Assembly (NCBI GenBank): GCA_018662925.1
Contig: JABJFC010000086.1
Span: 50-64,049, forward strand
Direction of reading: 5' to 3'
Source: Alphaproteobacteria bacterium
GTDB lineage: Bacteria > Pseudomonadota > Alphaproteobacteria > 16-39-46 > JABJFC01
DNA length: 64,000 bases
Part shown: one piece after another, positions 1 through 24,479 of the stretch
Layout: each line of letters opens with the position of its first letter
Numbering within the stretch: position 1 is the stretch's first letter
The notes under the pieces: generated by a model
What the model was told of the DNA's origin: nothing
The model's database searches: none
What the model saw: the letters and a program-made list of their open reading frames with translations, nothing else
Position numbers and translations under genes: made by a program

Positions 1-122
1 TTGGATATTATGCAAAGCAAAATCCAATGAATTTGAGAAAATGAAAAGAATTTTATGCGCTACTTCGCATAATTACTTTCTTCGCATAACAACTTGGCGG
101 CCTAATTAAAAAATCTGGACTC

Positions 123-299
123 ATGGATGCATTTGTCATTGAGGCAGGTGAAGATTTGCAAGCCTATGAGTCTTTGCACAAGGCTGCAAAGTTACTGGGC
201 TTCTTAAGTGATTCCATGGAAACAAAAACCTTCAATGAATCCTCCCTGGCATATTGGCAAAGAGTCGGTGAACGACATCTAAAATCCAAAGCTTTCTGA
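123..299 (+). CDS. small hypothetical protein (58 aa), not in the ORF track (below 60 aa)
   Basis: ATG at 123 in an open frame ending TGA at 297-299; in-frame TAA upstream caps its length; hydrophilic, no recognisable motif. Confidence 0.2.
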   Translation: MDAFVIEAGEDLQAYESLHKAAKLLGFLSDSMETKTFNESSLAYWQRVGERHLKSKAF

Positions 300-444
300 A
301 ATATGTTGAAAGGGTAGTATCGTTAATAAGCTCTGTATTCAGTTAATGAGTTTTAAAATATAACATAAGTATAATATTCAGTATTTTCACCTGCCGTATT
401 TACGTGACGATTAAATCAAATCCTGCTACAATTGCTGACGAAGG

Positions 445-1386
445 GTGTGGAGGGATTTAATGAGTTATTTCTCGATAAACGGGCTAATAGGTTTTTTTGA
501 TCTTAGAAATATAATCATTGAAAACTCATTAGATCGTCGTGCTTGTATTTTGGAGAAAGAGCTTCCTTATGGCATAAAGTTTTCATTCTTCAATAATTGT
601 TATTATTTTTTTGACTTTTCAGAAGCAGACTTTGCCAAGCCTTTTCTTGATCTAAAAAATCTTGATGAATTCAAAAATGCTAAGAACTCCGTCACATTGC
701 ATCTGCAAAAAGAAATGATTAATGCATTTAATGCATACTTGTATATAAACTACAGAGAACTCAATAAAAGCATCCATTACTCTAGTTCTGTTACGCGTTC
801 ACAACTCCCGAATGATATTGATCAATTTTTTATACCTAATTCAATTTCAAAAGTAACATTACCGTTATCTTATTATTTAGATAGCTGTGCTATTTTCTCA
901 AGCGAGGCATATAAAATTGCCTCTAAAGCGGTCTACAGTCAAAATCCACATAATAACCGAAAATTCAGCAAAAAATTAATTAGTAAAAGTGTGGGAATGC
1001 TTTCTTCGATTTCAGAACATAATCAGATAGATCCATACAACCAAGCTTTCTTTTATATATTAGCACAACTATGGAAAGCAGTTTATTTTAAAAATCATGA
1101 CCTAAGAATAGAAGCAACAATATTTGCTCGTTGTATTTTTGAATTATTAGTTCAAAGAAAATTTGGCCTTAAGAATAAAGGGTTAACTAAGGCACGTTTT
1201 AATAAATATTGCGAATCTAAAGAAGTAAGTTCATTTTTTAAAGATTTTTATGAAACATTAAGAAATCCTTCTGCACACGAACTTAGAATTCCTGAAAAAC
1301 CTGATGAAATTAATCAGTACCTTAAGTATTTGATCGAATTTTTCAAACGTGATTCAGGCATAGATATTAAGAATATCTTGAGGTGA
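445..1386 (+). CDS. hypothetical protein with C-terminal HEPN-type R-x4-H motif (LRNPSAHE); possible Abi_2 (AbiD/AbiF-like) abortive-infection protein
   Basis: 313-aa ORF, markedly AT-rich, next to IS elements; motif RNPSAH near the C-terminus matches the Rx4-6H HEPN signature typical of the Abi_2 family; no other conserved catalytic motif. Confidence 0.35.
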   Translation: MWRDLMSYFSINGLIGFFDLRNIIIENSLDRRACILEKELPYGIKFSFFNNCYYFFDFSEADFAKPFLDLKNLDEFKNAKNSVTLHLQKEMINAFNAYLYINYRELNKSIHYSSSVTRSQLPNDIDQFFIPNSISKVTLPLSYYLDSCAIFSSEAYKIASKAVYSQNPHNNRKFSKKLISKSVGMLSSISEHNQIDPYNQAFFYILAQLWKAVYFKNHDLRIEATIFARCIFELLVQRKFGLKNKGLTKARFNKYCESKEVSSFFKDFYETLRNPSAHELRIPEKPDEINQYLKYLIEFFKRDSGIDIKNILR

Positions 1387-2379
1387 TAAATGGGTATATT
1401 TCAATGGAAAGAAATAATCTCTTATGCACATTTGACGTCTTTATGATTATGATGATTGTTATTACTCCGGAAGTAAAACAGTTGTCGAATGTTTGTGACG
1501 AAACTAGCATCTCTCAAGGAAATTCTAATTTAGAAAGCTAACTGTTTGCTAGCCGGAGTAATATCCTATTTTTTGGTGGCACTTTTTCTCTAATTTTTTG
1601 GTTCTTTAAAAAAACTAGAACGATTGGTCTAATCGAATATAGTACTGTATTATTTTCTATTTTTTCTGGCTCAATTTTAGGTTATTTATCCACTAATAAC
1701 AGAGCTCCATTAAATACTGTAATTTTAATAACTTTCATTTTTACTTCCATACCTTTTTTTACTCATAAGTTAGTACATAATTCCAATAAAAAAACTCTTA
1801 TGTTAATAAACACGAGTATGGCGTTATTATTTTTCCTATTTTATAGCATTGTAGGTGCAGAGATTAGACAGTCTGAAAAAGAGTTATGCAGCACGATAAA
1901 TGATTCATCCAAAGGAACTAATATTGGTAAAGATAAATCTCCTAGTAAACCCTCCCCGATGAATATTAAATTTCCACATCTACCCCAGGATTCATATTTT
2001 TTGGAAGAGTAAAGAGTAAAATATATATTAAACTCATTAACTGGACAGTGTCCATTGGATATTTTTACGTGTTGCTGATTACCTCTGCCTCAATATAAAA
2101 GAGCAACCTCACTCGTTATTTTTGGCAGTTGGTTGAAATGTAAGAAGAAACAGTTCAAAATTTAAGACTCAGTTCATGCAAAGAAGTAATTTCAAAATAA
2201 TTCACCTAGGACTTTCTCACTCAAAAGTTATCATAACCCTTTTCGATTAACCCCCCAAGCACACTACTCTTCATCTTTTGAAAAAATATCGGGCAGTGTG
2301 ATTAGGATGTATATAATGGTGAATTTGGCACCGTCAAGTTAATTGGTTAGGCTTATAAAAATCCCATATCCTCTATATT

Positions 2380-2624
2380 TTAGGCACAGATAATTCCATA
2401 ATCTGCCTCATCCCAGATGGATTTGGCAACTGTGAAATTTGCTCTCTGAGATGGTGCTTTCTTTGAATATTTGCCTACCTCTGCTGAGAAAATGTTTCTT
2501 ACTTTTCCCATGAGAGATAAGGTTCTTTGTACTCCTTGTGGGGATTTGAATTTAATAAGACATTTCTCTTTTTTACGGGTAGGCTAATGGGCGTTTTCAA
2601 CACGATTATTTAACCCCTTATGAG
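2380..2624 (-). pseudogene. IS6-family transposase C-terminal fragment (internal stop, separated from N-terminal part by IS21)
   Basis: Translated minus strand matches the IS26 Tnp C-terminus pattern NN.IE..H.K.K....GFKS....TL.G.E.R; in-frame TAG. Confidence 0.5.
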
Positions 2625-2724
2625 TGTCAATGGTCCTGTAAAATCCCCAGGTAAAGTCCCTCAAAAATCCCCCCCCTAAAAGAGGAGGTAGGAGAGGATA
2701 CTGAGTTCCATGATGTAAAATATT

Positions 2725-4164
2725 ATGGAACAGACAATGATAGGATTAGCGATGCATACAACAATATTAACTTTATGGAAGCAAGGGAACAGTAAGAATG
2801 AGATTGCCCGAGTCACAGGCAAAGATCGTAAAACAGTTCGACGGATAATAAAGAAGTACGAAGGCACGAAAGAAGAAATACCAGCCATAGTGCAAAAAGC
2901 CAGTGCACTACAGGCATACCATACAGAGATCATTTCTTTTCTAGAGTCAGGATTGAGCGCTGTAAGAGTCCATGAGAAGCTGCAAGATCTGGGATGTCCC
3001 ATTGGGTATTCGGGGGTAAAAAAATATGTTGCCAAGATAAAGCTTCATTCGAACATTTGTGTCAGATTTCACAGTGAACCAGGAGAAGAAGCCCAGGTAG
3101 ATTTTGGATACGTAGGACTCATACCAGACCCCAAGAGGGGTGCTGGAAGGAAGAAAGCCTGGGTTTTTAATATGCGTTTGAGTTATTCCCGACTTGATTA
3201 TTATGAAGTTGTTTTAGATCAAAAGGTAGAGACATTCATTCGGTGTCACGAAAATGCTTTTCGGTCATTTGGAGGTATTCCCAAAGTGGTCAAAATAGAT
3301 AATCTTAAGGCAGCGATACTGGAGGCCCATTTTTATGAGCCCCTCTACCAAAGGCTCTACAAGCAGTTTGCAGATCATTGTGGTTTTTATCCCTTGCCCT
3401 GTCGAGTGAGACAACCGCAAGAAAAAGGAAAGGTTGAATCAGGGATAAAATACATAAAGAACAATTTTTTTGCTGGACGCTCGTTTAAGAGCTTTGAGGA
3501 TCTCTGTACTCAACTAAGGCAGTGGATGGATGACTATTGTCAGGAAAGGGTTCATGGAACGACAAAAGAAAAGCCTCGTGTGTTATTTGAGACAAAAGAA
3601 CAAGAGGTGTTGAAGAGGATTCCCCTCAATCCTTTTTACATGGGTACCAGGGGGCAAAGAAAAGTCCAGAAAGACTGTCATGTCGTTGTGGATCATAATT
3701 TTTACTCTGTGCCCTTTGAGCATGTGGGGAAGGTCGTTGAAGTACAGGAAGACTCGAGAGAAGTGAAGATTTTTTATGAAGACAAACAAGTGGCCCTCCA
3801 TATCCGACAAAATGGCAAGGGCAGGTTCTCGACCCAAACATCCCATTACCCTAGGTATAAATATTACACTCCTGACTCCCCCGAGTATCTTTCCCTTTAT
3901 CAGAACAAAATGACCTCCCTTGGAAAAGAGACAGAAGATCTGTTCTCTCTCATTGTTCAAGAACATCCCCGGGATTGGTACAGGATTGTAAAAGGCATTT
4001 TAGGTCTCCGAAAGCACTACAGCGATGAGGTCATCAATTTAGCCAGCAAAAGAGCTATGGCCTTTGGGATCACCCAGTACAAAAAGATAAAAAGGATCTG
4101 TGAGAGTGGATGTTATAGATTGCCCTTGTCTTCAAAAGGCCAGGAGGTCACATGGAAAGCATAA
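2725..4164 (+). CDS. istA: IS21-family transposase IstA
   Basis: 479 aa; N-terminal HTH then a DDE integrase core (architecture typical of IstA); overlaps istB by 13 nt as in IS21. Confidence 0.85.
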   Translation: MEQTMIGLAMHTTILTLWKQGNSKNEIARVTGKDRKTVRRIIKKYEGTKEEIPAIVQKASALQAYHTEIISFLESGLSAVRVHEKLQDLGCPIGYSGVKKYVAKIKLHSNICVRFHSEPGEEAQVDFGYVGLIPDPKRGAGRKKAWVFNMRLSYSRLDYYEVVLDQKVETFIRCHENAFRSFGGIPKVVKIDNLKAAILEAHFYEPLYQRLYKQFADHCGFYPLPCRVRQPQEKGKVESGIKYIKNNFFAGRSFKSFEDLCTQLRQWMDDYCQERVHGTTKEKPRVLFETKEQEVLKRIPLNPFYMGTRGQRKVQKDCHVVVDHNFYSVPFEHVGKVVEVQEDSREVKIFYEDKQVALHIRQNGKGRFSTQTSHYPRYKYYTPDSPEYLSLYQNKMTSLGKETEDLFSLIVQEHPRDWYRIVKGILGLRKHYSDEVINLASKRAMAFGITQYKKIKRICESGCYRLPLSSKGQEVTWKA

Positions 4165-4898
4165 AGCAAACCCTGAGAGAGTTTAAGCTGGCAGGAATGC
4201 TTATGTCTCTGGAGGAAAGGATTGTGTATGCTAATGAGAAGCAGCTTTCCTATCAACAGTTCTTGGGGCTTTTATGTGAAGATGAAGCTAACAACCGACG
4301 GGACAACAGCTATAAAAAGAGATACGTAAAAGCAAAACTTCCCAATCATAAAACAGTAGAAGACTTTGATTTTGCGTTCCAACCTTCTCTGCCTAAAAAG
4401 CAAATTAATGACGCTTTAACGTGCCAGTTTATAAAAGAGAAACGGAATTTAATTTTTGTTGGAAATCCTGGCACAGGAAAAACGCATTTATCAACAGCTA
4501 TTGCCTTAAGGGCCCTATCTAAAGAATTTAAGGTTCTGTTTACGACCGTTTCTGAAATGCTGTATCAATTGCATGTGGCAAAGGCCGACAACTCTTATTA
4601 CAAAAAGTTGGGAGAATACCTATCCCCTGATTTATTGGTTCTTGATGAGTTAGGGTTTAAGAAATTCCCTCAGTACTCTGTAGATGATTTTTTTGAGGTA
4701 ATATCCAAACGTTATGAAAAGGGCTCTTTAATTATTACAACTAATAAGCCTTTTGAGCAGTGGAGCAACATCTTTGGAGATAACACTTTAGCTGAGGCCA
4801 TCCTTGATAGGGTCGTCCATCATTCCATGGTTTTTACTATTAAAGGTCCTAGTTATCGGAGTAAATCTGTTAGAAAAAAGGAGGCGGAAATGACGTAA
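4152..4898 (+). CDS. istB: IS21-family helper ATPase IstB
   Basis: 248 aa; Walker A GNPGTGKTHL, Walker B LLVLDELG; IstB/DnaC-like. Confidence 0.85.
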   Translation: MESIKQTLREFKLAGMLMSLEERIVYANEKQLSYQQFLGLLCEDEANNRRDNSYKKRYVKAKLPNHKTVEDFDFAFQPSLPKKQINDALTCQFIKEKRNLIFVGNPGTGKTHLSTAIALRALSKEFKVLFTTVSEMLYQLHVAKADNSYYKKLGEYLSPDLLVLDELGFKKFPQYSVDDFFEVISKRYEKGSLIITTNKPFEQWSNIFGDNTLAEAILDRVVHHSMVFTIKGPSYRSKSVRKKEAEMT

Positions 4899-4973
4899 AA
4901 ATAATTCCCTAGGGGGGGGATTTTTGAGGGACTTTACCTGGGGATTTTACAGGGCCATTGACATGAGAACGAT

Positions 4974-5251
4974 GATCCGTATTCCGAGTCATATAACGTA
5001 TGGGCTTGGTATAATTTTTTAGCTTCACGTGGCTCTGGATAAGCTCCTAATAAACGGCTTAGAAAACGAATTTCGGCTTTCTTATTTCGGCGTTTTTGGA
5101 GAAATATATCCAGTTCATGCCCCTCAGAATCGACCGTTCTCCACAGAATGAAGTGAACATCATTGAGTTTGATGGTCACTTCATCAAGATGCCATCTGTT
5201 CTTGAATATCACGGTAGCTGTGATTGAATCGGTGGTAAAGCCATACGGCAT
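4974..5251 (-). pseudogene. IS6-family transposase N/central fragment (DDE region), truncated by IS21
   Basis: ORF 4934..5251; the residues matching IS26 Tnp (WHLDE...DSEGHELDIFLQKRRNKKAEIRFL) lie outside the IS21 inverted repeat; the last about 13 codons read into the IS21 repeat. Confidence 0.55.
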
Positions 5252-5464
5252 GACTGATAATGGAAATTGGAAAACGATGACATCGAGATGCTATTAATAA
5301 GGACATGGTGATTACCTTCATATTAAAATTCGAACATAACACAAATCCATATTAACTTGACGATGCCTATCCCCTCAAATTACTCTTCTAAGTCTTAAAA
5401 AACTTCTCTTCCATTCTGCCTTTGATTTATTCAGACCTCTCTATGAAATAAATGCCATTTACGA

Positions 5465-6421
5465 TTAAACTGCACGAACCATTTCAACTTTTTCTGGAAG
5501 ATCATATTTTGAATGATCCAGTTTTGCTACATTGATATTGTGATCTTTAAATTGGGAGATTATATTTGAAAACAGTTGAGTTTTTATCATATCTCTACCC
5601 TCTGTAATATTAGAAAGCCAAAATGTTAGGCTAAGAGCAACAGCATCATAGTGTACATTTTTGATATATGCTGAAGGAGAAGGTGTTTCTAACACAAGTT
5701 GATGCTCAAGAGCGCTGTTTTTCATTAATAAAAGAGCGTCTTCTGTATTAGATTCATAATCTATTTTAATCTCAATATTTAATGCTGCTTTTGTATCAGA
5801 GTAGGTCCAGTTGATAACACGGTTGGCTAAAAGCTCATCATTTGGAATAATGACCTCAATACCAGTCTCTGTTCGTAGCAAGGTATACCTTGCACCTGTA
5901 TATCGCACATATCCCATGGTACCATCTGAAAGCTCTATTAAATCATTACCTTCAATTGATTTTTCAGAAAGCAAAATTAGGCCGCTAATGAAATTCGAAG
6001 CTACTTTTTGAAGACCGAAACCAATTCCAATTCCAATGGCACCGCTAAAAATAGTGAACGTAGCAAGGTCCAAACTTAATATGTCTAAAGATACAATAAA
6101 AACTATGGTGTAAGTTAAGATTTGCACACCCTTTATAATGAGGGTCTTTTTTGAGTTGTTTATATAGTTCGTTGAATTTATTTTTGTTTCTACTTTTTCT
6201 AAAAATATGGACGCCAAAGATAAAAGCGTTATAAACGTTATTATGCCCTTTAATAAGAACCATATAGATATTTTCACACCAGCAACATTAAAAGTTAAAT
6301 TCTGAAGGTTATTAAAAAGATCTGAGTACTGAGAGCCAAAAAGTAAAAAAATTAAGGCTGCGGAAACAAGTGCAACTAAAAATAATTTTGAAACATAAGA
6401 GATTTGTTTTCTATTGAGCAT
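5465..6421 (-). CDS. mechanosensitive ion channel, MscS family
   Basis: 318 aa; N-terminal TM helices; pore-helix-like segment AIGIGIGFGLQKVASNFISGLILL then a beta-domain; MscS architecture. Confidence 0.7.
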   Translation of the reverse strand: MLNRKQISYVSKLFLVALVSAALIFLLFGSQYSDLFNNLQNLTFNVAGVKISIWFLLKGIITFITLLSLASIFLEKVETKINSTNYINNSKKTLIIKGVQILTYTIVFIVSLDILSLDLATFTIFSGAIGIGIGFGLQKVASNFISGLILLSEKSIEGNDLIELSDGTMGYVRYTGARYTLLRTETGIEVIIPNDELLANRVINWTYSDTKAALNIEIKIDYESNTEDALLLMKNSALEHQLVLETPSPSAYIKNVHYDAVALSLTFWLSNITEGRDMIKTQLFSNIISQFKDHNINVAKLDHSKYDLPEKVEMVRAV

Positions 6422-7254
6422 TAAAAAGGCTTTTCATTTATTAATCTTAATGATTTACCTTTACTCTACCTAAAGTGGTTTTGAAAGTTAAAAACTAGTT
6501 TTTTCATCTAAATATCTTGAAAAATAGGAGCGAGCAATTTACACTTAATGAATTAAGAAACAAAATTCTGTTTCAGAGACTGAACGCGAACTTTTAGAAA
6601 ACTTAGAAACGCATCGTATCTTCTCAGAAAACATTCAAGAATAGCTGATCGCTTCAGTCTCTTTGATGGTAGTTGGAAATTTATTATTCTTCTTTTTGCA
6701 TTTCTTCGTGGTTTGATGTTTTTAAATTTTTAGTATCTTACTCCAAGATTAAACCTCTTACTCTTATATTCTTTTGAAGCCTGCTTTATCTTGAGTGTCT
6801 CACCTTACAGGCCCAAATTATTATGGGTCAAAATCGATTCTCTGATCGAAGTTGAATTCGAGCAGAAAATTATTATTAAATAAACCTAAAATCCGAATCA
6901 CAGACCCGCCAGCTTAATAAATTTATAGCCTAGGAATTAGCACAACTTATAAAAATTCGAAATTAAATAAATACTATAAGAGATAATTACAATGTGCCAT
7001 ATCACAAGAGCGATCGAGCAGCTTTCTCTTTCATTATGCAACCAAGCATTTTGACGAAGCACTTTCTGAAAGCAATCTAGAAGAAAAACCTGGTTCAAGT
7101 GAACATAGAATTATACCTCTGAGGCTCTTGCGGATTATACCAATGAGTGAAAAAATGCACCTACCTGACACCATATTCACATTGATTCCAACCATCAAAT
7201 GTATATCAAATCTTTTGGTGAAGAGGGGAGCGTCATTAGAAAGAGTTTTTAAAG

Positions 7255-8508
7255 CTATTCATCCGACCGTGGATCAAGTTCTGACGCAATAGGTGTTGTG
7301 CCTGGAAGAACAACAAAATCTTGATGATCTTCTACAGCCGATGGTATACGGGTACTGACTCGGTATATTAAATAAGCTGCTAATCCTACCGAGATAAAGA
7401 TAAAATATATAAACAACCCTCCGCTTCCAAAAAAACTCATAAATACAGAAGCAAATATAGGGCCAAAAATTGCCCCTATCCCATAAGCCAACATGAGCCC
7501 TTGCGTGGCAGAAACAATGTCAGCATGTTCAAGAACATCACATGTATGGCTTATGCTGACAGGGTATAAAGCAAAAGAGGCGCCGCCAAAAATGAAGATC
7601 AGGATATTGATACTTTGTACAGATTGATTTGATATCGTTATAATGAAAAGCTCAATTGCTAATAATAAAAAGCAAAGAAAAATTAACATTTTTCTTCTAT
7701 CAACCAAATCAGACAAACGCCCAATTGGATACTGTAAAGCGGTGCCACCAGCAATAAGTAAAAACATAATTAAGGCTGTTACAGAGACATCATTAAGCAT
7801 TGTTTGAGTATATAAAGGAAGCAACCCTAACACTGATCCTAATAAAAGCCCCGAACATGTACATGATACAATGCCGGTGGGCGATAATTTATAGAGTTGA
7901 ATTAAAGTCAAAGCTGACGGTTCTTCAATGGTTGGGTTCCCAACTTTGGTAATTGCAAGGGGTATAACTGAAAGAATTACAAAAATTGTGGCAATCGAAA
8001 AAGGAGTTAAACTATCTATATTAAAAACATTTAACAAAAATTGCCCAGAAGCAGAGGCACCGTAAAGCGCAATCATATATAAAGCTAGAAATTGACCGCG
8101 CGTCTTTACTGTACTATGCCCCAACAGCCAGCTTTCTACTACAATATATAGACCAGCTAGGCAATACCCACTAATGGCACGTAATAATATCCAATACCAT
8201 AAAGAATAAAACAGCCCCTGAGAAAGCATAACAACAGCTGTAAGAGAAGCAAAAGCAGCATAAGCACGAATATGACCAACCCTTAAAATAAAATTTGCAT
8301 TTTTAAAGGCACCAAGTGCCATACCCGTATAGTATGCGGATGTGATGAGGCCAATATTCAAAGAAGAAACGCTTTCCATTTCTAAGCGAATAGGAATAAA
8401 CGTACCAAAAAGACCAACGCCATTCATTAAAAAAAACATACTTAAAAGAGGCGGAATAACGGAACAAAATATTTTAGGTGTCATGATTAACGTTCCACTT
8501 TTATACAA
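7255..8508 (-). CDS. MFS transporter
   Basis: 417 aa, about 12 predicted TM helices, MFS-like loop 2-3 motif. Confidence 0.6.
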   Translation of the reverse strand: MYKSGTLIMTPKIFCSVIPPLLSMFFLMNGVGLFGTFIPIRLEMESVSSLNIGLITSAYYTGMALGAFKNANFILRVGHIRAYAAFASLTAVVMLSQGLFYSLWYWILLRAISGYCLAGLYIVVESWLLGHSTVKTRGQFLALYMIALYGASASGQFLLNVFNIDSLTPFSIATIFVILSVIPLAITKVGNPTIEEPSALTLIQLYKLSPTGIVSCTCSGLLLGSVLGLLPLYTQTMLNDVSVTALIMFLLIAGGTALQYPIGRLSDLVDRRKMLIFLCFLLLAIELFIITISNQSVQSINILIFIFGGASFALYPVSISHTCDVLEHADIVSATQGLMLAYGIGAIFGPIFASVFMSFFGSGGLFIYFIFISVGLAAYLIYRVSTRIPSAVEDHQDFVVLPGTTPIASELDPRSDE

Positions 8509-8661
8509 TGTTGATATCCTCTTCTAATCCTTTCATCATAAGGAAGGAGCAGATAAGTTTCGTACCTTTATCATGGATCTAAAATAGTTAATACTTATTA
8601 AATTCTGAGGCCAGCTAATACACTTAAATTGTAAAATATCAGACACTTAATTTTTCAATGC

Positions 8662-9696
8662 ATGCTCCTATCATTTTTAGATGTGATCATTTGGAATATT
8701 CAACAGTTTGATGATGCCAATACTAATTTTCTTTCAAAGCCTACCTATGGTAAAAATATTCAGTTCTTAAAAAAATCTACACTCTTTCCTTTTACATCTA
8801 TAATTTTTAAGGCTACACTGTTCAAATGTGAGAAAGAATATAGCAGGGGGATCTTGATGCCAAATAATAAATTTCTAGAATTGCAAAACGTAATAATAAA
8901 AACTTACGGCGATTTTTATGATCAAGTTCTAGAATATATCCCACAAATTTTTCTTGCAATTTTCTTATTTTTGTTTGGTTTGATGTTCGCACATTTGTTG
9001 CGAATAATTACTAGAAAATTTTTAAAGGGTTTTGACTCTCTTATAAAGAGGTTAGCACTTTTTTTTGGCTTAAAGTCACTAAACTCCAAGCATTCATATG
9101 AAATCCTTATTAGTAAATTTGTATTCTGGTTGGTATTAATCTTCTTTATTGCTTCAAGTGCTAATGTGCTTGGCTGGAAAATTATTACAAAACTTGTTGA
9201 TAGTTTTATGATGGTGTTACCAAATTTAGTTACTTTTTTTCTAATTGTTATGGTTGGCTTTTTACTAAGTATGGGAGTAAGAACAACAGCTCAAAAACTA
9301 TTATATTCTGCTGGCTTTGCAAAAAGTGAAATTATTGCTCAATTAATCCAAGCGCTTGTCTTATTCACCGCAATAATAATAGGAGTCGAACAAATAGGGC
9401 TCCATGTTCAGTTTCTAACGATGATAATAATTGCAATAATTTCTATAGTTTTTGCGGGTGTAAGTCTTGCTTTTGGACTTGGGGCGAAAACCTTTGTCTC
9501 TAATATTATTTCCGCACAATATATAAATAAGCACTGTGATATAGATGATTTTGTGCAAGTTGGAGAAGTGGAAGGAAAGCTCATAGAAATTACTCAAACT
9601 TTCTTAATCTTAGAAACACAAAAAGGTAGAACAATGGTTCCAGCAAAATATTTTCATGAAAATGTCAGTACTTTTTATAGAAAAGATACAATTTAA
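8662..9696 (+). CDS. MscS-family mechanosensitive channel-like protein
   Basis: 344 aa; multiple TM helices; segment AGVSLAFGLGAKTFVSNIISAQYI resembles MscS TM3; C-terminal beta domain. Confidence 0.5.
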   Translation: MLLSFLDVIIWNIQQFDDANTNFLSKPTYGKNIQFLKKSTLFPFTSIIFKATLFKCEKEYSRGILMPNNKFLELQNVIIKTYGDFYDQVLEYIPQIFLAIFLFLFGLMFAHLLRIITRKFLKGFDSLIKRLALFFGLKSLNSKHSYEILISKFVFWLVLIFFIASSANVLGWKIITKLVDSFMMVLPNLVTFFLIVMVGFLLSMGVRTTAQKLLYSAGFAKSEIIAQLIQALVLFTAIIIGVEQIGLHVQFLTMIIIAIISIVFAGVSLAFGLGAKTFVSNIISAQYINKHCDIDDFVQVGEVEGKLIEITQTFLILETQKGRTMVPAKYFHENVSTFYRKDTI

Positions 9697-9720
9697 AATG
9701 TTTTCTAAAGTGCTTTAAAT

Positions 9721-10569
9721 ATGCCTAACAATAAGAAAGATTTTGCTCTTACTTTTACACAATCACACCCTGACATAGTGGCAAAGGAGTTAGAAAAAAT
9801 GCCTCCATATAAGGTGGCTTCTTTTTTAAAAAGTATTCCTATTTCCGTAGCCCCTCAAGTTATAGAAAAAATGCTTTCAAAGAAAGTTGCCGAAATATGC
9901 AATATATTAGAACCTGAAAAAACAACTAAATTTCTAACTCTTATGGAGATTCACTCAGTTATATCAGTATTAAGACATCTAGATCCTGAAAGGCGTCGTT
10001 CCATTCTTGCACACTTACCCTCTAAGCTCAGATTATGCTGTAAAATCCTTTTGCGATATTCAGATAATAGTGTTGGTGCTTGGGCTTATCCACAACCAAA
10101 TATCATTCCATTTGATTACACTGTCGCTGAAGCACTTCAGTTAATTAAAAACACACAAAATAGAATACCTTCCAATATTATTTTTATCGTTAATCGCTAT
10201 AAAGCCTTTATAGGATTCGTGGATACATATAAATTACTTCAATCACCACCGGATGCTTTAATTGAAGCTCTCACGAAAGAAAGTGAATATTGTTTGTACG
10301 GAACTATGAAGCTTGATTCTATCCTTAATCATCCAGGATGGGAGTATTTCGATGTTCTTCCCGTATTAACCAGTGATCAAAAAATTATTGGGGAATTACC
10401 ATACCGAACCCTCAGAAAAGCTCTAGAAACTTCTAATGAACAAAGAGAAGCTATATTTACCGAGGACATGATTGCTCCAGTTTGGAAGATATATAGTTCA
10501 ATATCGTTTTCTTTTATAAATTTACTGAGTTCATTCCTTGAGCAAAAAAATGAATTTTCCAAGAAATAG
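9721..10569 (+). CDS. stand-alone MgtE N-domain plus CBS-pair protein (cytosolic sensor part of MgtE, no TM domain)
   Basis: 282 aa; helical MgtE_N-like N-terminus followed by a CBS-like pair; no hydrophobic segments; directly upstream of full-length mgtE. Confidence 0.45.
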   Translation: MPNNKKDFALTFTQSHPDIVAKELEKMPPYKVASFLKSIPISVAPQVIEKMLSKKVAEICNILEPEKTTKFLTLMEIHSVISVLRHLDPERRRSILAHLPSKLRLCCKILLRYSDNSVGAWAYPQPNIIPFDYTVAEALQLIKNTQNRIPSNIIFIVNRYKAFIGFVDTYKLLQSPPDALIEALTKESEYCLYGTMKLDSILNHPGWEYFDVLPVLTSDQKIIGELPYRTLRKALETSNEQREAIFTEDMIAPVWKIYSSISFSFINLLSSFLEQKNEFSKK

Positions 10570-10578
10570 GTGTTTTAG

Positions 10579-11892
10579 ATGCCACAACCAAACCTAAAAG
10601 TAACTATAGAAAAGCTCAATAAGATTTTTATAACCAGCTATCCTATTGAAGCAGCTAGAAAATTTGAAACCATGACTCCCTCAGCTGCTGCAAACATCCT
10701 TAGTAAGCATCCTATCTGTGATGTTAGTTGCGTTTTTTCTTTTATTACTCCTGGTATAGGAAAATTAATTCTGCTGCTTTTGCCAAAAACTATGGCTTGC
10801 GAGCTATTAATGCACTTAGAACCAAATTATGTAGCAATACTTCTAAGGCTTTTGAATAAAAAACAGCAAGATGCCTATCTTAGAAACTTAGATCAAAGCA
10901 TTTCACGGGAAATAAAGGAAATTTTAGGATACCCACAAAACACGGCAGGAGCAATGATGGAAGCGAGCTTCGTCGGATTTAATAAGAATGCCTCTGTGAA
11001 AGATATTTTGTTATTTTTCCAACAACAAAAATTAGACAAAGTTGATCATATTCTTCTTCTTAATGATCAGCTTGAATTAGTGGGAAAAATTAATGTCGGT
11101 CGTCTAGTATTAGCAGACAAGAATCTAAAATTATTTTCACTTTCTGAGCCAGTTAGCGTTTCTTTTTCTGCACTTGATTCTAGAGAAAAAGTCATAAAAG
11201 TATTTGAAAAAACAAAATTAGATTTTGTACCAGTTTTAGATGCAAATAATAGGGTTATAGGCGTTATACAATCATACATGCTCATAGAAGCTATAAAAGA
11301 AGATATTGTTTCTGATATTCAAACCATGGTAGGTGCAAATAAAGAGGAAAGCGCTCTATCTAGTAGCTTCTTCTCTGTTAGGAAAAGATTACCATGGATG
11401 GAGATTAATTTACTTACCGCCTTTCTTGCAGCAGCAGTAGTGGGTATTTTTGAAGAAACGATCGCAAAATATACGGCCTTAGCTGTTCTTTTACCTGTTG
11501 TAGCAGGGCAGTCTGGTAATGCGGGTGCTCAAGCATTAGCTATTACTATGCGTAGTCTTATTTTAAGAGAAATCACTACAAACCAGTGGCTCAAAATAGC
11601 ACTAAAAGAATTTAATACTGGCCTTATGAATGGCATATTAATAGCCTTAACTTGCGCAGTTGCAGTTTTTATTTGGAGTAAAAATATTGGCCTTTCTTTA
11701 GTAATCACTCTTTCCATGATAGTTTCCATGATTATTGCAAGCGTTGCAGGAGCGCTTGTTCCTATAGTTTTAAAAAAACTAAGACAAGATCCAGCTCAAT
11801 CATCTTCTATCATACTAACTACTATTACAGATGTAGCAGGGTTTATGTCCTTCCTTGGAATCGCAACAAGCCTGCATAGGTTTCTTTTATAA
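10579..11892 (+). CDS. mgtE: magnesium transporter MgtE
   Basis: 437 aa; N-domain, CBS pair, and C-terminal 5-TM MgtE domain (PVVAGQSGNAGAQALAITMRSL). Confidence 0.8.
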   Translation: MPQPNLKVTIEKLNKIFITSYPIEAARKFETMTPSAAANILSKHPICDVSCVFSFITPGIGKLILLLLPKTMACELLMHLEPNYVAILLRLLNKKQQDAYLRNLDQSISREIKEILGYPQNTAGAMMEASFVGFNKNASVKDILLFFQQQKLDKVDHILLLNDQLELVGKINVGRLVLADKNLKLFSLSEPVSVSFSALDSREKVIKVFEKTKLDFVPVLDANNRVIGVIQSYMLIEAIKEDIVSDIQTMVGANKEESALSSSFFSVRKRLPWMEINLLTAFLAAAVVGIFEETIAKYTALAVLLPVVAGQSGNAGAQALAITMRSLILREITTNQWLKIALKEFNTGLMNGILIALTCAVAVFIWSKNIGLSLVITLSMIVSMIIASVAGALVPIVLKKLRQDPAQSSSIILTTITDVAGFMSFLGIATSLHRFLL

Positions 11893-11999
11893 ATAATTGG
11901 ACACTTCGATAAACTACTTGAAAAAGGAATGTTATGTGATTGAATTGTGAAAGGAAATAAAACTTTGGGGAGAAGAATGTACTTGCAACCAAATTGTTT

Positions 12000-12515
12000 A
12001 GACCTAGCAAATAGAGGGCACCTCTATTAACCTCTCTACATGGTTTAACCATTTGATACAATGCGATAGTTGCATTTTTGTTGAGCCTTTATAAATATCA
12101 CAGCCCGTTTTTTCTCAAGAAATCCATTAACAATAACGAGCTTCCAGCAAATGTTCCTATAGACAAGAGTAGCAACGACATGACAGTTTTGAAATACATC
12201 AACAATGGATCGAACAAAGAACAGTAGATAGAAATTCGCCAAAACAAACACCTAAACAACATGATTGAGTATTATCATCGGTTTATAAAAAAAGAACGAG
12301 GTTTATGCTTTGATGCCAAGCTATCCGCCTTTCAAAACTTTACGACTCTTATGGCCTAATGTATCTGAAAAATAGAAATCTGCTAACCTCTCCTCGACTC
12401 TGCGCCACAAACGCGACAGAACCCATTTATAAAACCTCCTATAGAAACCAGCTATCCCATTGTATCAAATGGTTAAGCCATGTCTAAAGGTTAATAGATG
12501 GGCCCATTTGCTTTG
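12000..12515. mobile_element. degenerate IS6-like remnant or MITE-like element bounded by about 50-bp imperfect inverted repeats
   Basis: 12007-12061 is the imperfect reverse complement of 12458-12515 (cattgtatcaaatggttaa.ccatgt...aggttaatag...atttgct); an internal frame encodes an IS6 Tnp C-terminal fragment. Confidence 0.45.
12228..12359 (+). pseudogene. IS6-family transposase C-terminal fragment
   Basis: Translation IEIRQNKHLNNMIEYYHRFIKKERGLCFDAKLSAFQNFTTLMA matches the IS26 Tnp C-terminus (VEHRQIKYRNNVIECDHGKLKRIIGATLGFKSMKTAYATIKG); upstream in-frame stop. Confidence 0.5.
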
Positions 12516-12596
12516 CGAATTTTCTTCTACTGCTTCCGATATGCTTCCGGATTTTTTATCTGGATTTTTCAAAAACTCTGTATGTCGCTTCAAATA

Positions 12597-12672
<76 letters not shown>

Positions 12673-18594: not shown

Positions 18595-21435
18595 ATGATT
18601 TCATCCATTTCTATTCGCGGTGCACGAGAGCACAACTTAAAAGATCTCAATGTGGAAATCCCCAAGAACCAACTTGTGGTCATTACGGGCCTCAGTGGAT
18701 CCGGAAAATCCTCCCTAGCATTTGATACGATCTATGCCGAAGGTCAGCGCCGCTATGTGGAAAGCCTGTCTGCCTATGCCCGTCAATTCTTGGAACTCAT
18801 GCAAAAACCCGATATAGATTCCATTGAGGGTCTATCACCGGCCATTGCCATCGAACAAAAGACTACCTCCAAAAATCCTCGATCTACAGTCGGAACCATT
18901 ACGGAAATTTATGATTACCTGCGGCTTTTGTTCGCACGAATAGGTGTCCCCTATTCACCTGCCACAGGACTCCCCATCGAAAGCCAATCTGTTTCTCAAA
19001 TGGTGGATCGTCTTATGGCACTCCCAGAAGGAACAAAGCTTTATCTCTTGGCGCCCATCGTGCGCGGCCGCAAAGGAGAATATCGGAAAGAACTGCTAGA
19101 GCTCCAGCGCAAAGGATTCCAGCGTGTGAAAATAGACGGAGAACTATACGAAATCGATGAAGCACCTGCGCTAAATAAAAAAGTAAAACACGATATCGAT
19201 GTGGTGGTCGATCGACTCGCGGTGAAAGAGACGGTGAAACAGCGCCTCGCAGATACGCTTGAAACAGCCCTATCCATCGCAGATGGCTTGGCCGCGGCAG
19301 AGTTAGCCGATACGGGAGAACGCATTACTTTTTCCGAAAAGTTTGCCTGTCCCGTCTCGGGATTCACCCTGGAAGAAATAGAACCTCGCCTCTTTTCCTT
19401 TAATAACCCTTTCGGAGCCTGTCCAACTTGTGATGGATTGGGCGTTAAAATGGAATTTGACGAGGACCTGGTTGTTCCCAACAAGTCCCTCTCTCTTTTG
19501 AAAGGCGCCATTGCGCCCTGGGCAAATTCCTCAAGCGAATACTATATCCAAACCCTGGAAGGCATTGCACGGCATTACAAAGTCAAGCTTAACGCCCCCT
19601 TCGAGATATTACCTCAAAAAGTTCAAGAGACCATTCTCCATGGTTCTGGGCGAGAAAAAATCGATATCACATATCGGGATGCAAAACGCACCTACACAGT
19701 GTCCAAAGCATTTGAAGGTGTCATTCCCAATATGACACGCCGTTTCCTAGAAACGGAAAGTAGCTGGGTCCGCGAAGAAATGGGTAAATACCAAATGGTC
19801 CATACCTGTGATAGCTGTGAAGCTTTTCGGTTAAAGCCAGAAGCGCTGTGCGTTAAAATTGATGAACTGCACATTGCTGAAGTCACAAACAAGTCCATCG
19901 AAGAGGCCGCTGTCTGGTTTGAAAATCTGCCCTCAAAACTGGACACGCAAAATCAAGAAATTGGCCGGCGGATTCTTAAGGAAATTCAAGAACGCTTGGG
20001 ATTTTTGGTCAGCGTTGGTTTGGGATACCTCACCCTCTCCCGAGGTTCAGGCACGCTATCTGGAGGAGAAAGCCAGCGCATTCGACTGGCCTCTCAAATC
20101 GGATCAGGACTCACCGGTGTTCTTTACGTTCTAGATGAACCCTCTATCGGACTCCATCAACGAGATAACAATCGCCTTTTGGAGACCCTTGTTCGTTTGC
20201 GAGATCTAGGCAACTCCGTCATCGTTGTTGAGCACGATGAAGATGCCATCCGAACTGCCGATCATGTCATTGATATGGGCCCCAGAGCTGGGATTCACGG
20301 TGGAGAAATAATTGCGCAAGGAACGCCAGCAGATATTCTAGCCTCTGAAAAAAGCCTCACAGGACAATACCTGAGTGGGAAGCGAGAAATCCCCATACCT
20401 CAAAGGCGGCGCAAAGGAAAAAGTGATCTGAAAATTATAGGCGCGCAAGCCAACAATCTTCAAAACATAGATGCGACCATTCCTCTCGGCACCTTTACCT
20501 GTGTGACAGGAGTCTCAGGTGGCGGAAAATCATCTCTCATTGTTGAAACGCTTTATAAGGGCTTATCCCGCCTCCTTAATAATTCAAGAATCATTCCAGG
20601 CACCCACAAGAAAATTAGCGGTGCTTATGAATTGGACAAGATTGTTGATATCAATCAATCTCCTATTGGACGGACCCCGCGGTCTAATCCCGCCACCTAT
20701 ACAGGCTGTTTCACGCCCATCCGCGAATGGTTTGCGGGCCTTCCCGAAGCCAAAGCCAGAGGCTATAAGCCAGGACGCTTTTCCTTTAACGTCAAAGGGG
20801 GGCGCTGTGAATCCTGTCAAGGAGATGGGCTTATAAAGATTGAAATGCATTTTCTGCCCGACGTTTATGTCACCTGCGATCAATGTAAGGGTCGTCGTTA
20901 TAACAGAGAAACTTTGGAAATCACATACAAAGGCAAATCCATCGCAGATGTTCTTGATATGACCGTCGATGAGGCAGCAGATTTTTTCGAAGCCCATCCC
21001 AGTCTCAAAGATAAGCTAGCTGTTTTAAACAAGGTTGGGCTTTCGTATATCCATTTGGGCCAATCTGCCACTACCCTTTCAGGAGGTGAAGCACAGCGGG
21101 TTAAATTAGCCAAGGAACTCTCCCGACGCGCCACAGGAAAGACTTTATATATTCTGGATGAGCCAACGACAGGCCTCCACTTTGAAGACACTCGGAAACT
21201 CTTAGAAGTTCTCCAGGCCCTAGTAGACCAGGGCAACTCTGTCCTCGTTATAGAACATAACCTAGACGTGATTAAAACAGCCGACTGGATCATCGATTTG
21301 GGCCCCGAGGGTGGTTCAGGTGGCGGACATATTGTGGCCGCAGGCACGCCTGAAGATATCGTTCATGTTAAAGAAAGCTACACGGGGCATTATCTCAAAC
21401 CACATTTGAAAGGCTACGACGAGAAGGCCGCTTAA
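18595..21435 (+). CDS. uvrA: excinuclease ABC subunit A
   Basis: 946 aa; two ABC modules ([20 protein letters not shown]), zinc fingers, LSGGE signatures. Confidence 0.95.
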
Positions 21436-21617: not shown

Positions 21618-24479
21618 CTAATACCCAATTACCGTAACAGGTACACCAATCGCAGTACTTGAGAAATTGCCATTGCCGTGATCGAAGTAGGGCTGGAGTT
21701 CAGAGGGTGCATCGTAAAATTCGTCCTTTCCCCTCTTTTCGTAGCCCGTAAAACCATTGTCGTTTGCAGAAGGCATAATACCTTTACCCATGGCAAGGGT
21801 TTTTAATACATATTGCATCCTATTCGCATGAAAAGCATCACTTTCAGCTTCTAATTTCTTCTGCATATATTCAGACAGATCTACCACCACAGAATCCCCC
21901 TTAGGTTGAACTGGCACTTGAGAAGCGGACGGAAAAAATACACTTGGCGGACGCAAATCTGAAACAGCCCCATCAACGTTTTCTTCTTCAGTGTCTGAAC
22001 CATCGGAGGCGTCATGAAAAACGAGATCCTTATCCTGCTCTTCTTCTTCATCTGCATTTTTCCCTTCAAGTTGATCAAGTCCAACTTCTTCCTCCTCTTC
22101 AAGGAGTGCATATTGAACACTAGTGCTGTCCAAGTCCTCAACTCTACCAACGTTCAATCCACCGCCCGAAAACCCTTCGCCACCTCCAGAATAGTCCTCC
22201 ATCTCCCTGTCATCTGCTGCGCGTTTCTCCTTCGTTTTTTTCTCCTTCTTAACTAGAACTCTGATTTCTTTAATGAACTTATGCACCTCTTCTACCTCTG
22301 TCATAGTGCCCCTTTTGACAGTGAATTGGAAAATATCTTCCACAAACTGCATGAGATCATGTTTATGCAATCCAACGAAATCAGGATACTTGAAAAAAGT
22401 TTTCCTGACCTGACGGATGAACCAACTTGACCAAGTCTCTATGGGGTTTACAGAATACTCTTCCTCAACGCCAAATCCACATTTCTTTAGCACAGGCTTT
22501 ATACCCTGTAGATTACTAAAACTGCGCCAGCCCCAATGAGACAGTAATTCTTCATCAGGTGATGATTGTAAATCATCCTCATTGATGATACGGCCACTAA
22601 CTTCCCAAACTGTTCTTGAAAGCTTCACGAAACCTTGCCTGATACCCGTTAATAAACGGCGAGTCCTTAGGGCGATTATTGAGCCAGATCTCTTTAGTTG
22701 AGCAGCTGCAAATGGTGTTAAGTTGAGAGACAGTCCCGCTGTCGTAATTAAAACGTAACCATTATAAAGAATGCTCAGGGGATCTCGTGTAATTAAAGAA
22801 TAAACACTGGGCACGCCCATAGCTGTCAGGTACACAACGGCAAAGGGAACTGTTTGCAGAGTTCCCCACGCCAAACTATCCAACCAATGTCCTACCCCCA
22901 AAATCCGGCTCACACGTCCCGTTGAAGGATTGTCTCGGGTTCCCTCTCTAATATAATGCATCCAGGCATACAAGCTATTAAACCAGCCAAAGGCTGCGAC
23001 AGGTGCACTTAACAAACCCAATGTCGTTAGACGAAAAGGATCCTCTATAATCGTACTAAACGAGTAGCCAAATGGATCATACAAAAGTCTGTGAAAGACG
23101 TACATTGACAGAACAGTTAGACCAGGCAAACCAACCGTAGCCGCCAACAGTGAAAATAAGCGTTTATTTATTTCAGGATCCTTTACCTGTCGAAAGATTC
23201 TTTGCCATCTGTTGAGTGTCTCTTTTCGAGATTCTTCTGTATCATCATGGAGTAGACTTTGCTCCAAAGAGCTTTCTTCTACTAAAAGTTCTCCTTCAAG
23301 AACTGCTATAAAATTTTTGATATCAATAAAATTTTCCACACCTGCATCTTTGCTACTACCTGAAGTAGATCGTGTAATAAGATTCCAAATTTGATGAAAC
23401 CTCTGGGGATCCGTCTTTATAGTAAGCCATAGTCTCAGAATTTCCTGAGGGTCCTCCATATCACGGATAAGACGCTTATAATCTCGCTTCTTCTGCTGTA
23501 ACGCAAGCATAGTATTTGCAAAGGATCCTTCTTTCTCTTCTCTCAATATCGTCTTTCTGAAAAACTCCCTGCTCTTTGCAAAAGTCCAGCGTAAATCACT
23601 TTGCAGAGCACTTACGCGCTCTGTAAGAGTTGCAAATTCAAATATAAATCCACCGAACATCTCTGTTGCTACAAGCCACAAGGGAGCATTTTCAGAAATA
23701 CTCAGATAAAACAAAGGAAGCGCCAGTGAAAGGACTGCAGCAGGAACGTCTAGTAATCTCCTACCAATAGTATGAATATAATCATTCAGTCGCTCGGCAC
23801 GAAACATATGGTTTGGAGCACGGGACAACATGCTTTCAAAAAATCTAGCTGCATCAACAGAGGTTACAGAATTTCGCAGATAAAAAGTAAGAGAAATGGC
23901 ATCCGTAAGAACATCCGTAGGATTTTTTGAAACGGTATCCTCTTGATCTAAATTAAGGATTTCAAGCCATCTATATAAAAAATATCCAAATAAAGCACCT
24001 CTTACAACATGCCCACCAGCAGAAACAATCACTCCAATCGCTCCCCAAGGCTCCCTCAAATGGGGCAGTATTCTGCGCGGAAAGTAGTGAAAAATCTGAT
24101 CTCGATCATCTGGTCGAACTTGCTGCATATAGTTCATAATACGGTCAAATTCTTCTCTAAGCGTCAAGGTATCCAGAATCTTTAGTCTTGAATATTTGTC
24201 ATCACCCAAACAGTTTACAGTGGGTTGCTGAAGCACCATGTACTCTGCTAGTGAATTATCCATATTCCTTATGACGGATGGAATACGATTCCTACTGTAC
24301 TCTTCCGAAGTCTCTCCATCTTTGCCTTTTGCAAAAGAACAATCGCAATTTAGTGAAGTACAAAACACAAAAACTAAAAGTAGGAAGGCATATTTTATAG
24401 CACACATCAAACAGAGGCTTTCGTAGTAATACTGAAATATAAAAATCTTTAGAGATGATAGTAAAAAACACCAATACAT
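21618..24479 (-). CDS. large hypothetical polytopic membrane protein with Glu/Asp-rich disordered C-terminal region
   Basis: 953-aa ORF; N-terminal signal-like segment (a more likely start is MCAIKYAFLLLVFVF...); at least 6 hydrophobic helices; C-terminal low-complexity SGGGEGFSGGG and EEEEE(V)...EEEEQD tracts. Confidence 0.5.
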   Translation of the reverse strand: MYWCFLLSSLKIFIFQYYYESLCLMCAIKYAFLLLVFVFCTSLNCDCSFAKGKDGETSEEYSRNRIPSVIRNMDNSLAEYMVLQQPTVNCLGDDKYSRLKILDTLTLREEFDRIMNYMQQVRPDDRDQIFHYFPRRILPHLREPWGAIGVIVSAGGHVVRGALFGYFLYRWLEILNLDQEDTVSKNPTDVLTDAISLTFYLRNSVTSVDAARFFESMLSRAPNHMFRAERLNDYIHTIGRRLLDVPAAVLSLALPLFYLSISENAPLWLVATEMFGGFIFEFATLTERVSALQSDLRWTFAKSREFFRKTILREEKEGSFANTMLALQQKKRDYKRLIRDMEDPQEILRLWLTIKTDPQRFHQIWNLITRSTSGSSKDAGVENFIDIKNFIAVLEGELLVEESSLEQSLLHDDTEESRKETLNRWQRIFRQVKDPEINKRLFSLLAATVGLPGLTVLSMYVFHRLLYDPFGYSFSTIIEDPFRLTTLGLLSAPVAAFGWFNSLYAWMHYIREGTRDNPSTGRVSRILGVGHWLDSLAWGTLQTVPFAVVYLTAMGVPSVYSLITRDPLSILYNGYVLITTAGLSLNLTPFAAAQLKRSGSIIALRTRRLLTGIRQGFVKLSRTVWEVSGRIINEDDLQSSPDEELLSHWGWRSFSNLQGIKPVLKKCGFGVEEEYSVNPIETWSSWFIRQVRKTFFKYPDFVGLHKHDLMQFVEDIFQFTVKRGTMTEVEEVHKFIKEIRVLVKKEKKTKEKRAADDREMEDYSGGGEGFSGGGLNVGRVEDLDSTSVQYALLEEEEEVGLDQLEGKNADEEEEQDKDLVFHDASDGSDTEEENVDGAVSDLRPPSVFFPSASQVPVQPKGDSVVVDLSEYMQKKLEAESDAFHANRMQYVLKTLAMGKGIMPSANDNGFTGYEKRGKDEFYDAPSELQPYFDHGNGNFSSTAIGVPVTVIGY

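Follow-up and report, generated by a model that had tools for sequence, protein, structure and literature searches.

A new HEPN family with a family-specific N-terminal domain in an AT-rich, insertion sequence-ridden segment of an alphaproteobacterial contig

The gene located at positions 460–1386 (plus strand) of a 64,000-nucleotide stretch of alphaproteobacterial DNA (contig JABJFC010000086.1 of assembly GCA_018662925.1, positions 50 to 64,049; hereinafter, the window) encodes a protein that, by fold and motif, is a member of the HEPN superfamily and represents a HEPN family that is new, as is its N-terminal domain. This family is very rare, previously undescribed and mobile. Many immune and toxin systems of bacteria, including Cas13, Csm6, abortive infection (Abi) proteins and MNT-HEPN, use HEPN ribonucleases (RNases) as the module that kills cells or arrests growth. 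The reading that we favor, with a probability of about 50% for all of its steps together, is that the protein is a self-contained HEPN endoribonuclease that would be gated by its N-terminal domain and, once triggered, would arrest growth as a toxin. The original prediction, made from the window sequence, described the gene as an AT-rich orphan with a HEPN motif and a possible Abi-type defense function.

The gene and its homologs

The gene is real. In the open reading frame (ORF) listing of the window, it appears as a GTG-initiated ORF of 313 amino acids (aa) at positions 445–1386 of the plus strand, but the true start, as judged from sequence comparison, is almost certainly the ATG at position 460 because close homologs begin with MSYFSINGLI, a GGAGGG ribosome-binding site (449–454) lies 5 nucleotides (nt) upstream of this codon, and public gene calls for the same protein give 308 aa. 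Specifically, the N-terminal MSYFSINGLI of three homologs, P0002, P0005 and the protein from Facilibium subflavum, aligns with the methionine encoded by this ATG, and a start at GTG 445 would add 5 residues without a counterpart in these homologs. The coding sequence including the stop codon accordingly spans positions 460–1386, and residues are numbered throughout according to the 308-aa protein. A sigma-70-like promoter match (GTGACG-17-TACAAT with an upstream TG, 404–432, plus strand) is a consensus match only, and such matches are no more common in this region than in shuffled sequences. Downstream of the gene, a hairpin at 1460–1563 folds no better than shuffled sequences (z=-1.1).

The claim that the product lacks a recognizable housekeeping homolog holds: the searches of Pfam, NCBIfam, PHROGs, PADLOC and PDB sequences yielded no significant match for the window protein. 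The only Pfam match, below significance, is Hypoth_Ymh; NCBIfam and PDB sequences returned none, and PHROGs nothing useful. A PADLOC match to REase_II (E=0.0024) was dropped, given that it is not reproduced in any other member of the family. A word-indexed search of 5.8 billion proteins detected 4 clusters of homologs, an exhaustive HMMER profile search of 1.84 billion representatives detected 21, and the final profile search added 2 more. A profile built from the C-terminal domain only found nothing new among the 5.8 billion proteins or PDB sequences, its PDB matches (a dioxygenase and a designed TPR protein) being taken as chance.

The identical protein is encoded on at least 10 contigs from several metagenomes, as well as in a metagenome-assembled genome (MAG) deposited at NCBI as “Alphaproteobacteria bacterium” (locus tag HON43_00465). 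The family splits into a close subfamily with 39–49% identity to the window protein and a distant subfamily with 18–24% identity. To the close subfamily belong two more lineages known from metagenomes, an alphaproteobacterial MAG and Facilibium subflavum (Gammaproteobacteria, Fastidiosibacteraceae). The closest relatives are P0002, P0005 and the Facilibium protein (43–49% identity). All members for which an organism name was recovered come from Alpha- or Gammaproteobacteria, several of these being uncultured MAGs.

Domain architecture and conserved residues

The C-terminal domain (residues ~194–300, encoded at 1039–1359, plus strand) adopts a HEPN fold in the structural model. AlphaFold2 run on 4 sequences gave an unusable model, with a predicted local distance difference test (pLDDT) score of 56.7; with an alignment of 17 sequences, the pLDDT rises to 82.6 and the predicted template modeling score is 0.86. 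In this model, the domain is an all-alpha, four-helix up-and-down core typical of the HEPN superfamily (helices 197–212, 216–234, 254–273 and 281–299), with a short helical insert (244–251) between helices 2 and 3. Structure comparison identifies AF0298 (score 9.7), Csm6 (9.6 and 8.9), Csx1 (9.5), the HEPN proteins and toxins 4nqf, 8xdj, 7ae2 and 5yep (8.6–9.4), TTHA0636, HI0074, TT1696, YutE and ST0689 (8.2–9.1), AbiV (8.9), AbiA (8.5), the sacsin HEPN domain (8.5) and Las1 (7.1), compared with about 6 for unrelated helical bundles. Foldseek searches of PDB and BFVD yield no significant match, and the top of the list below significance consists of Csm6, Las1, AbiV and AF0298.

In the HEPN superfamily, the R-x4-6-H motif is located at the end of helix 3 or the start of the loop that leads to helix 4, the arginine is usually followed by N, D or H, helix 2 contributes another conserved acidic residue that is often part of an E-x3-[KR] motif, and inserts between helices 2 and 3 are common (PMC3710099). 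All four features are present in the window family. The motif R268-NPSA-H273 (1261–1278, plus strand), part of the LRNPSAHE string correctly spotted in the original prediction, occupies the C-terminal end of core helix 3 (254–273) and is followed by a loop and then by helix 281–299. Directly after R268, 14 of the 17 aligned members have N, H, D or E (N269 in the window protein). The acidic residue of helix 2 belongs to E228-LLVQ-R233 (1141–1158, plus strand); its column contains E or D in 16 of the 17 members, and K or R is found at +4 in 11 of the 17, whereas in the window protein Q occupies +4 and R follows at +5.

Taken alone, the motif is weak evidence that lies within chance expectation: R-x4-H occurs in 25% of the shuffled versions of the window protein, and R-x4-6-H in 57%. 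It gains significance because R268 and H273 are conserved among the homologs. The alignment of 17 full-length members, with 18–49% identity to the window protein and a mean column identity of 31%, contains only five invariant columns, E85, S147, Y151, R268 and H273, and both R268 and H273 are retained in 20 of the 21 full-length sequences examined.

Sequence searches yield scattered sub-threshold matches, all of which fall on HEPN families. The match of the window protein to Hypoth_Ymh (PF09509) covers residues 230–289 (235–294 of the 313-aa ORF) with E=0.017 and 15.4 bits against a cut-off of 25; DUF4145 (PF13643) is matched by P0017 only at E=0.0011 and 19.4 bits against a cut-off of 23.1 (residues 201–255); and the HEPN half of the PADLOC CARF_HEPN model matches residues 75–185 of P0023 with E=9.5e-5. 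Taken together, the model, the structure comparison and these matches indicate that the C-terminal domain is very probably homologous to the HEPN domains. Given that R268, H273 and E228 are intact, its site is predicted, with somewhat less confidence, to be catalytically competent. The original prediction of a HEPN RNase signature can therefore be retained with respect to the fold and the conserved motif, but membership in the family that it named, Abi_2 (PF07751), is not supported: the window protein has no match to this profile at E<=10, and none of the 17 members matches it at E<=1.

The N-terminal alpha/beta domain (residues 1–165, encoded at 460–954, plus strand), delineated from the alignment and the model, starts with a four-strand beta meander (9–13, 29–35, 39–44 and 48–52) that is followed by helices extending up to residue 186. 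Its conserved residues are D14, D52, E85, D121, S147 and Y151, of which E85, S147 and Y151 are invariant. In the exhaustive profile search, this domain was always coupled to the HEPN domain described here, and single-domain proteins were found only as short fragments. Positions 83 and 88 switch together, with R-x-E-x-x-H in the distant subfamily and Q-K-E-x-x-N in the subfamily of the window protein. The distant subfamily thereby possesses another R-x4-H, built around the invariant E85 in a long N-terminal helix (residues 83–88, window positions 706–723). From the alignment, this region looks like a second functional site that would be “softened” in the subfamily of the window protein. Two candidate identities of the N-terminal domain were rejected on topology and motifs. 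With regard to a CARF domain, the meander is contiguous rather than composed of beta-alpha-beta units, and the only CARF match, found in 1 of the 17 members, is weak (E=0.025). With regard to a nucleotidyltransferase, the domain starts with a beta meander and lacks the G[GS]...DxD signature.

Genomic contexts of the family and of the window gene

The position of the gene is not conserved across the family and differs in nearly every lineage; in particular, no conserved core syntenic position was found among the relatives. In the alphaproteobacterial MAG that encodes P0002, the gene order is NUDIX, the family gene, GNAT, P-loop protein, His_Phos, GNAT and glyoxalase, and the family gene overlaps the downstream GNAT gene by 4 nt. 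In Facilibium subflavum, the family gene is flanked by GNAT/DUF4440 on one side and by GNAT, YhcG nuclease and two more GNAT genes on the other, with 4-nt overlaps on both sides. In the P0005 contigs, the family gene is the third in an operon of eight overlapping genes (MarR, AAC(6')-like GNAT/DUF4440, the family gene, GNAT, GNAT, APH, APH, CPT) that belongs to a larger island with GNAT, APH and ABC-exporter genes and a weak HEPN_AbiU2-like gene. The three GNAT-linked proteins form one clade (62–84% identity) to which the window protein is the sister, and the GNATs encoded downstream of it in the alpha- and gammaproteobacterial loci share 51% identity. Among the Facilibium-like metagenomic contigs, L030 (1–20924; also L031 and L032) carries at least 8 GNAT genes, 4 APH-type kinases, a CPT-like gene, three ABC exporters, NUDIX and MarR; here, the weak HEPN_AbiU2-like gene (19290–19850, minus strand) is wedged between GNAT and APH genes, with overlapping boundaries.

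Other members reside in different surroundings. P0012 is located next to a transposase, ParA/RHH and AbiEi/AbiEii genes; P0021 is flanked by a PemK/RHH pair on one side and an AbiEii pair on the other, and a GNAT gene is found farther out; P0007 lies between secF and a gene for an RF-1-domain protein; and P0010 is found, together with a 235-aa ORF, between pdxJ and secG. This 235-aa ORF (L017 445–1152, L018 81–788), for which there is no Pfam or NCBIfam match, precedes the P0010 gene in 3 of the 4 contigs that carry it and may be a partner gene of this subfamily. Overall, these settings fit an accessory gene that moves horizontally and is found sometimes among toxin-antitoxin (TA) and Abi clusters and sometimes in operons of drug-modifying-type enzymes.

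In the window, the gene is solo cargo of an AT-rich segment ridden with insertion sequences (IS) and ending at a tRNA-Asn gene; a tblastn search of the window detected no degraded GNAT, NUDIX or 235-aa partner. The gene has been described as more AT-rich than its neighbors, and its GC content of 30.0% (24% at third codon positions) is indeed below that of the window (41.5%) and of the IS21 genes (38–42.5%), but the whole first ~12.6 kb is AT-rich, including an MscS gene (32%), the ORF at 8662–9696 (30%) and the MgtE genes (34–35%). Outside the IS elements, the GC content of positions 1–12672 is 30–37%. The segment ends at the tRNA-Asn gene (12597–12672, minus strand), the 3' end of which faces the AT-rich side, and beyond it are core genes with a GC content of about 44% (hslVU, uvrA, ftsK, acrB, NAD-GDH and pyk). 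Positions 1–12672 thereby resemble a genomic island, although no integrase is visible; the other cargo comprises two MscS-type channels, an MFS transporter and two MgtE-type genes.

The nested IS cluster reported next to the gene is real but begins 940 base pairs (bp) past the stop codon and, hence, is near the gene rather than abutting it. An IS6/IS240-type element (2327–5367), recognizable by 17-nt inverted repeats (2327–2343 and 5351–5367), has its transposase gene split by the insertion of an IS21-type element (2625–4963, plus strand; istA 2725–4164, istB 4152–4898), leaving transposase fragments at 4934–5342 and ~2340–2620 on the minus strand. The inverted repeats of the IS21-type element (54 nt, 2625–2678 and 4910–4963) are 98% complementary, with a TGAG duplication on both flanks. 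Between the gene and the cluster, an open frame of about 155 codons (1545–2012), hydrophobic and membrane protein-like and without a start codon before ATG 1800, may be what is left of a gene that was cut short near the IS6-type element. At the other end of the segment, directly next to the tRNA-Asn gene, 81-nt inverted repeats with 79% complementarity enclose 328 nt (12016–12505), an arrangement that resembles a miniature inverted-repeat transposable element or an IS remnant. Farther away, between uvrA and ftsK, is a 953-aa ORF (21618–24479, minus strand) without a Pfam match at E<=1e-5.

Functional interpretation and comparison with known systems

We infer an RNase activity from the fold and the intact motif. 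By analogy with other HEPN enzymes, the HEPN domains of two subunits would pair their R-x4-H motifs to form a metal-independent endoribonuclease site. The N-terminal domain would keep the site inactive; once infection, stress, a small molecule or some other trigger is sensed, RNA cleavage would cause growth arrest, so that the protein would function as a single-polypeptide toxin of the abortive-infection kind. The context of mobility and conflict supports this reading because positions vary among the relatives, P0012 and P0021 are located in TA/Abi clusters, and the window copy is 0.94 kb away from nested IS elements. Several observations weigh against it. In one member, P0025, H273 is replaced by K and E228 is missing. 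For P0002, P0005 and the Facilibium protein, the closest relatives, translational coupling is with GNAT, APH and CPT genes under a MarR gene rather than with defense genes, and other members (P0010 and P0007) are encoded between housekeeping genes. No family member was found in viral contigs with the profiles of both subfamilies, or in phage and plasmid collections in tblastn searches with three members, and neither an antitoxin nor a partner gene nor an RNA repeat is conserved throughout the family. The description of the gene as defense cargo thus receives mixed support: two distant relatives do belong to TA/AbiE clusters, and the positions are non-syntenic, but the closest relatives reside in GNAT/APH/CPT operons, and no member was found on a known phage or plasmid. 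A role in defense is plausible; one specifically in phage defense is doubtful.

The main alternative, suggested by the operons of the closest relatives, is that the protein belongs to a xenobiotic or antibiotic response and is co-expressed with acetyl- and phosphotransferases. It could then slow translation as an RNase induced by stress, or be a small-molecule binder like the HEPN-like C-terminal domain of aminoglycoside nucleotidyltransferases, the window copy being a stray, uncoupled one. HEPN genes in integron cassettes have been proposed to encode stress RNases (PMC3710099). We consider this explanation unlikely. A purely binding role is disfavored because the R-x4-H motif is invariant in the 17-member alignment, whereas HEPN domains fused to nucleotidyltransferases as substrate-binding modules have lost it (PMC3710099), and the N-terminal domain, with its beta meander, is not of the nucleotidyltransferase type. 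Furthermore, the GNAT link is limited to the clade to which the window protein is only a sister, the window lacks a GNAT remnant, and adjacency by itself means little in islands where GNATs are so abundant. An elaboration of the gated RNase scheme, which we regard as very unlikely, posits two centers, the HEPN site and an N-terminal polar site (D14, D52, R/Q83, E85, H/N88, D121, S147 and Y151) that would sense a small molecule or be catalytic; the sister clade would then represent a two-gene module with the coupled GNAT within MarR-controlled drug-modifying operons. Should this be the case, sensing of antibiotics or xenobiotics might be linked to RNA cleavage and dormancy, or acetylation might neutralize a HEPN toxin, much as MNT does through AMPylation.

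Explanations that invoke addiction, decay or delivery are less likely. As the toxin of an addiction module, a distinctly unlikely role, the protein would stabilize its mobile segment through post-segregational killing and would be neutralized by an unrecognized partner, namely the coupled GNAT in the sister clade and some other factor or its own N-terminal domain in the window. However, no partner is conserved, and the upstream genes vary, including a 58-aa ORF, NUDIX, GNAT/DUF4440 and the 235-aa protein. As for an RNA antitoxin, the Rfam search returned only tRNA, and no meaningful tandem repeat was detected. The titles and abstracts of the papers retrieved describe no HEPN-GNAT pair or module. 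The view of the window copy as a functionless relic in a decaying, IS-bombarded island draws on the 940 bp downstream, which hold only short ORFs and the start-less open frame, on the insertion of one IS within another and on the absence of the GNAT partner of the sister clade; it is highly improbable given the intact reading frame with a strong ribosome-binding site, the retention of all family-invariant residues and the recurrence of the identical protein in several metagenomes. Delivery as an effector into eukaryotic host cells by host-associated bacteria, for which the sole support is an LRR-SopA_C protein encoded nearby in the P0010 genome, is extremely improbable: neither a secretion signal nor a link to a secretion system was seen at any locus, and members of the family also occur in plasmid-like TA clusters.

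Any further HEPN family that brings a regulatory domain of its own is a candidate for a new trigger-sensing mechanism and a possible tool. The family is invisible to all curated profile libraries tried, and no earlier description was found of the association of its closest relatives with operons of antibiotic-modifying-type enzymes. If this association is functional, drug sensing would be tied to growth arrest at the RNA level; if not, the family is an ordinary addition to the catalog of HEPN toxins. Its description is useful for cataloging and possibly for exploring the drug-operon link, whereas the kind of protein is unsurprising.

Among the characterized HEPN RNase domains (PMC3710099), the structurally nearest ones are the AF0298-type or MNT-partnered toxins, the HEPN domains of Csm6 and Csx1, and AbiV, but the window family has no MNT, CARF or CRISPR partner, and its 165-residue alpha/beta domain is exclusive to it. 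Membership in the CARF-HEPN (Csm6/Csx1) group was rejected, given the lack of a CARF-like N-terminal topology and of cas genes at any locus examined, and that in MNT-HEPN toxin-antitoxin systems, given that no nucleotidyltransferase gene adjoins the family gene in the window or at any locus examined. Hypoth_Ymh and DUF4145, which are HEPN families linked to restriction-modification and Abi contexts (PMC3710099), provide the best sub-threshold matches, extending from helix 2 through the R-x4-H motif, but differ in their N-terminal domains; the window family was not assigned to either, considering that the scores are below the curated cut-offs and that only 1 and 2 of the 17 members match. The ANT(4'), ANT(6) and LinB proteins, which combine a nucleotidyltransferase with KNTase_C, are similar in length, two-domain layout and the C-terminal HEPN-like bundle, and the relatives of the window protein adjoin AAC-, APH- and CPT-like genes; however, the helical domains of these enzymes lack R-x4-H, and the N-terminal domain of the window family shows neither the pol-beta-type G[GS]...DxD signature nor the beta-alpha-beta pattern, so that membership in this group was rejected as well. 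The overall plan of the protein, a variable N-terminal domain followed by a C-terminal HEPN domain, is recurrent among Abi-type proteins such as AbiJ, AbiD/AbiF and AbiU2 (PMC3710099). The window family shares with AbiJ, AbiD/AbiF (Abi_2), AbiU2 and AbiV a family-specific N-terminal domain, the C-terminal HEPN domain, a length of about 300 aa and a patchy, mobile distribution, and differs from them in that it matches no Abi model in Pfam or PADLOC and in that its closest relatives are encoded in GNAT/APH operons.
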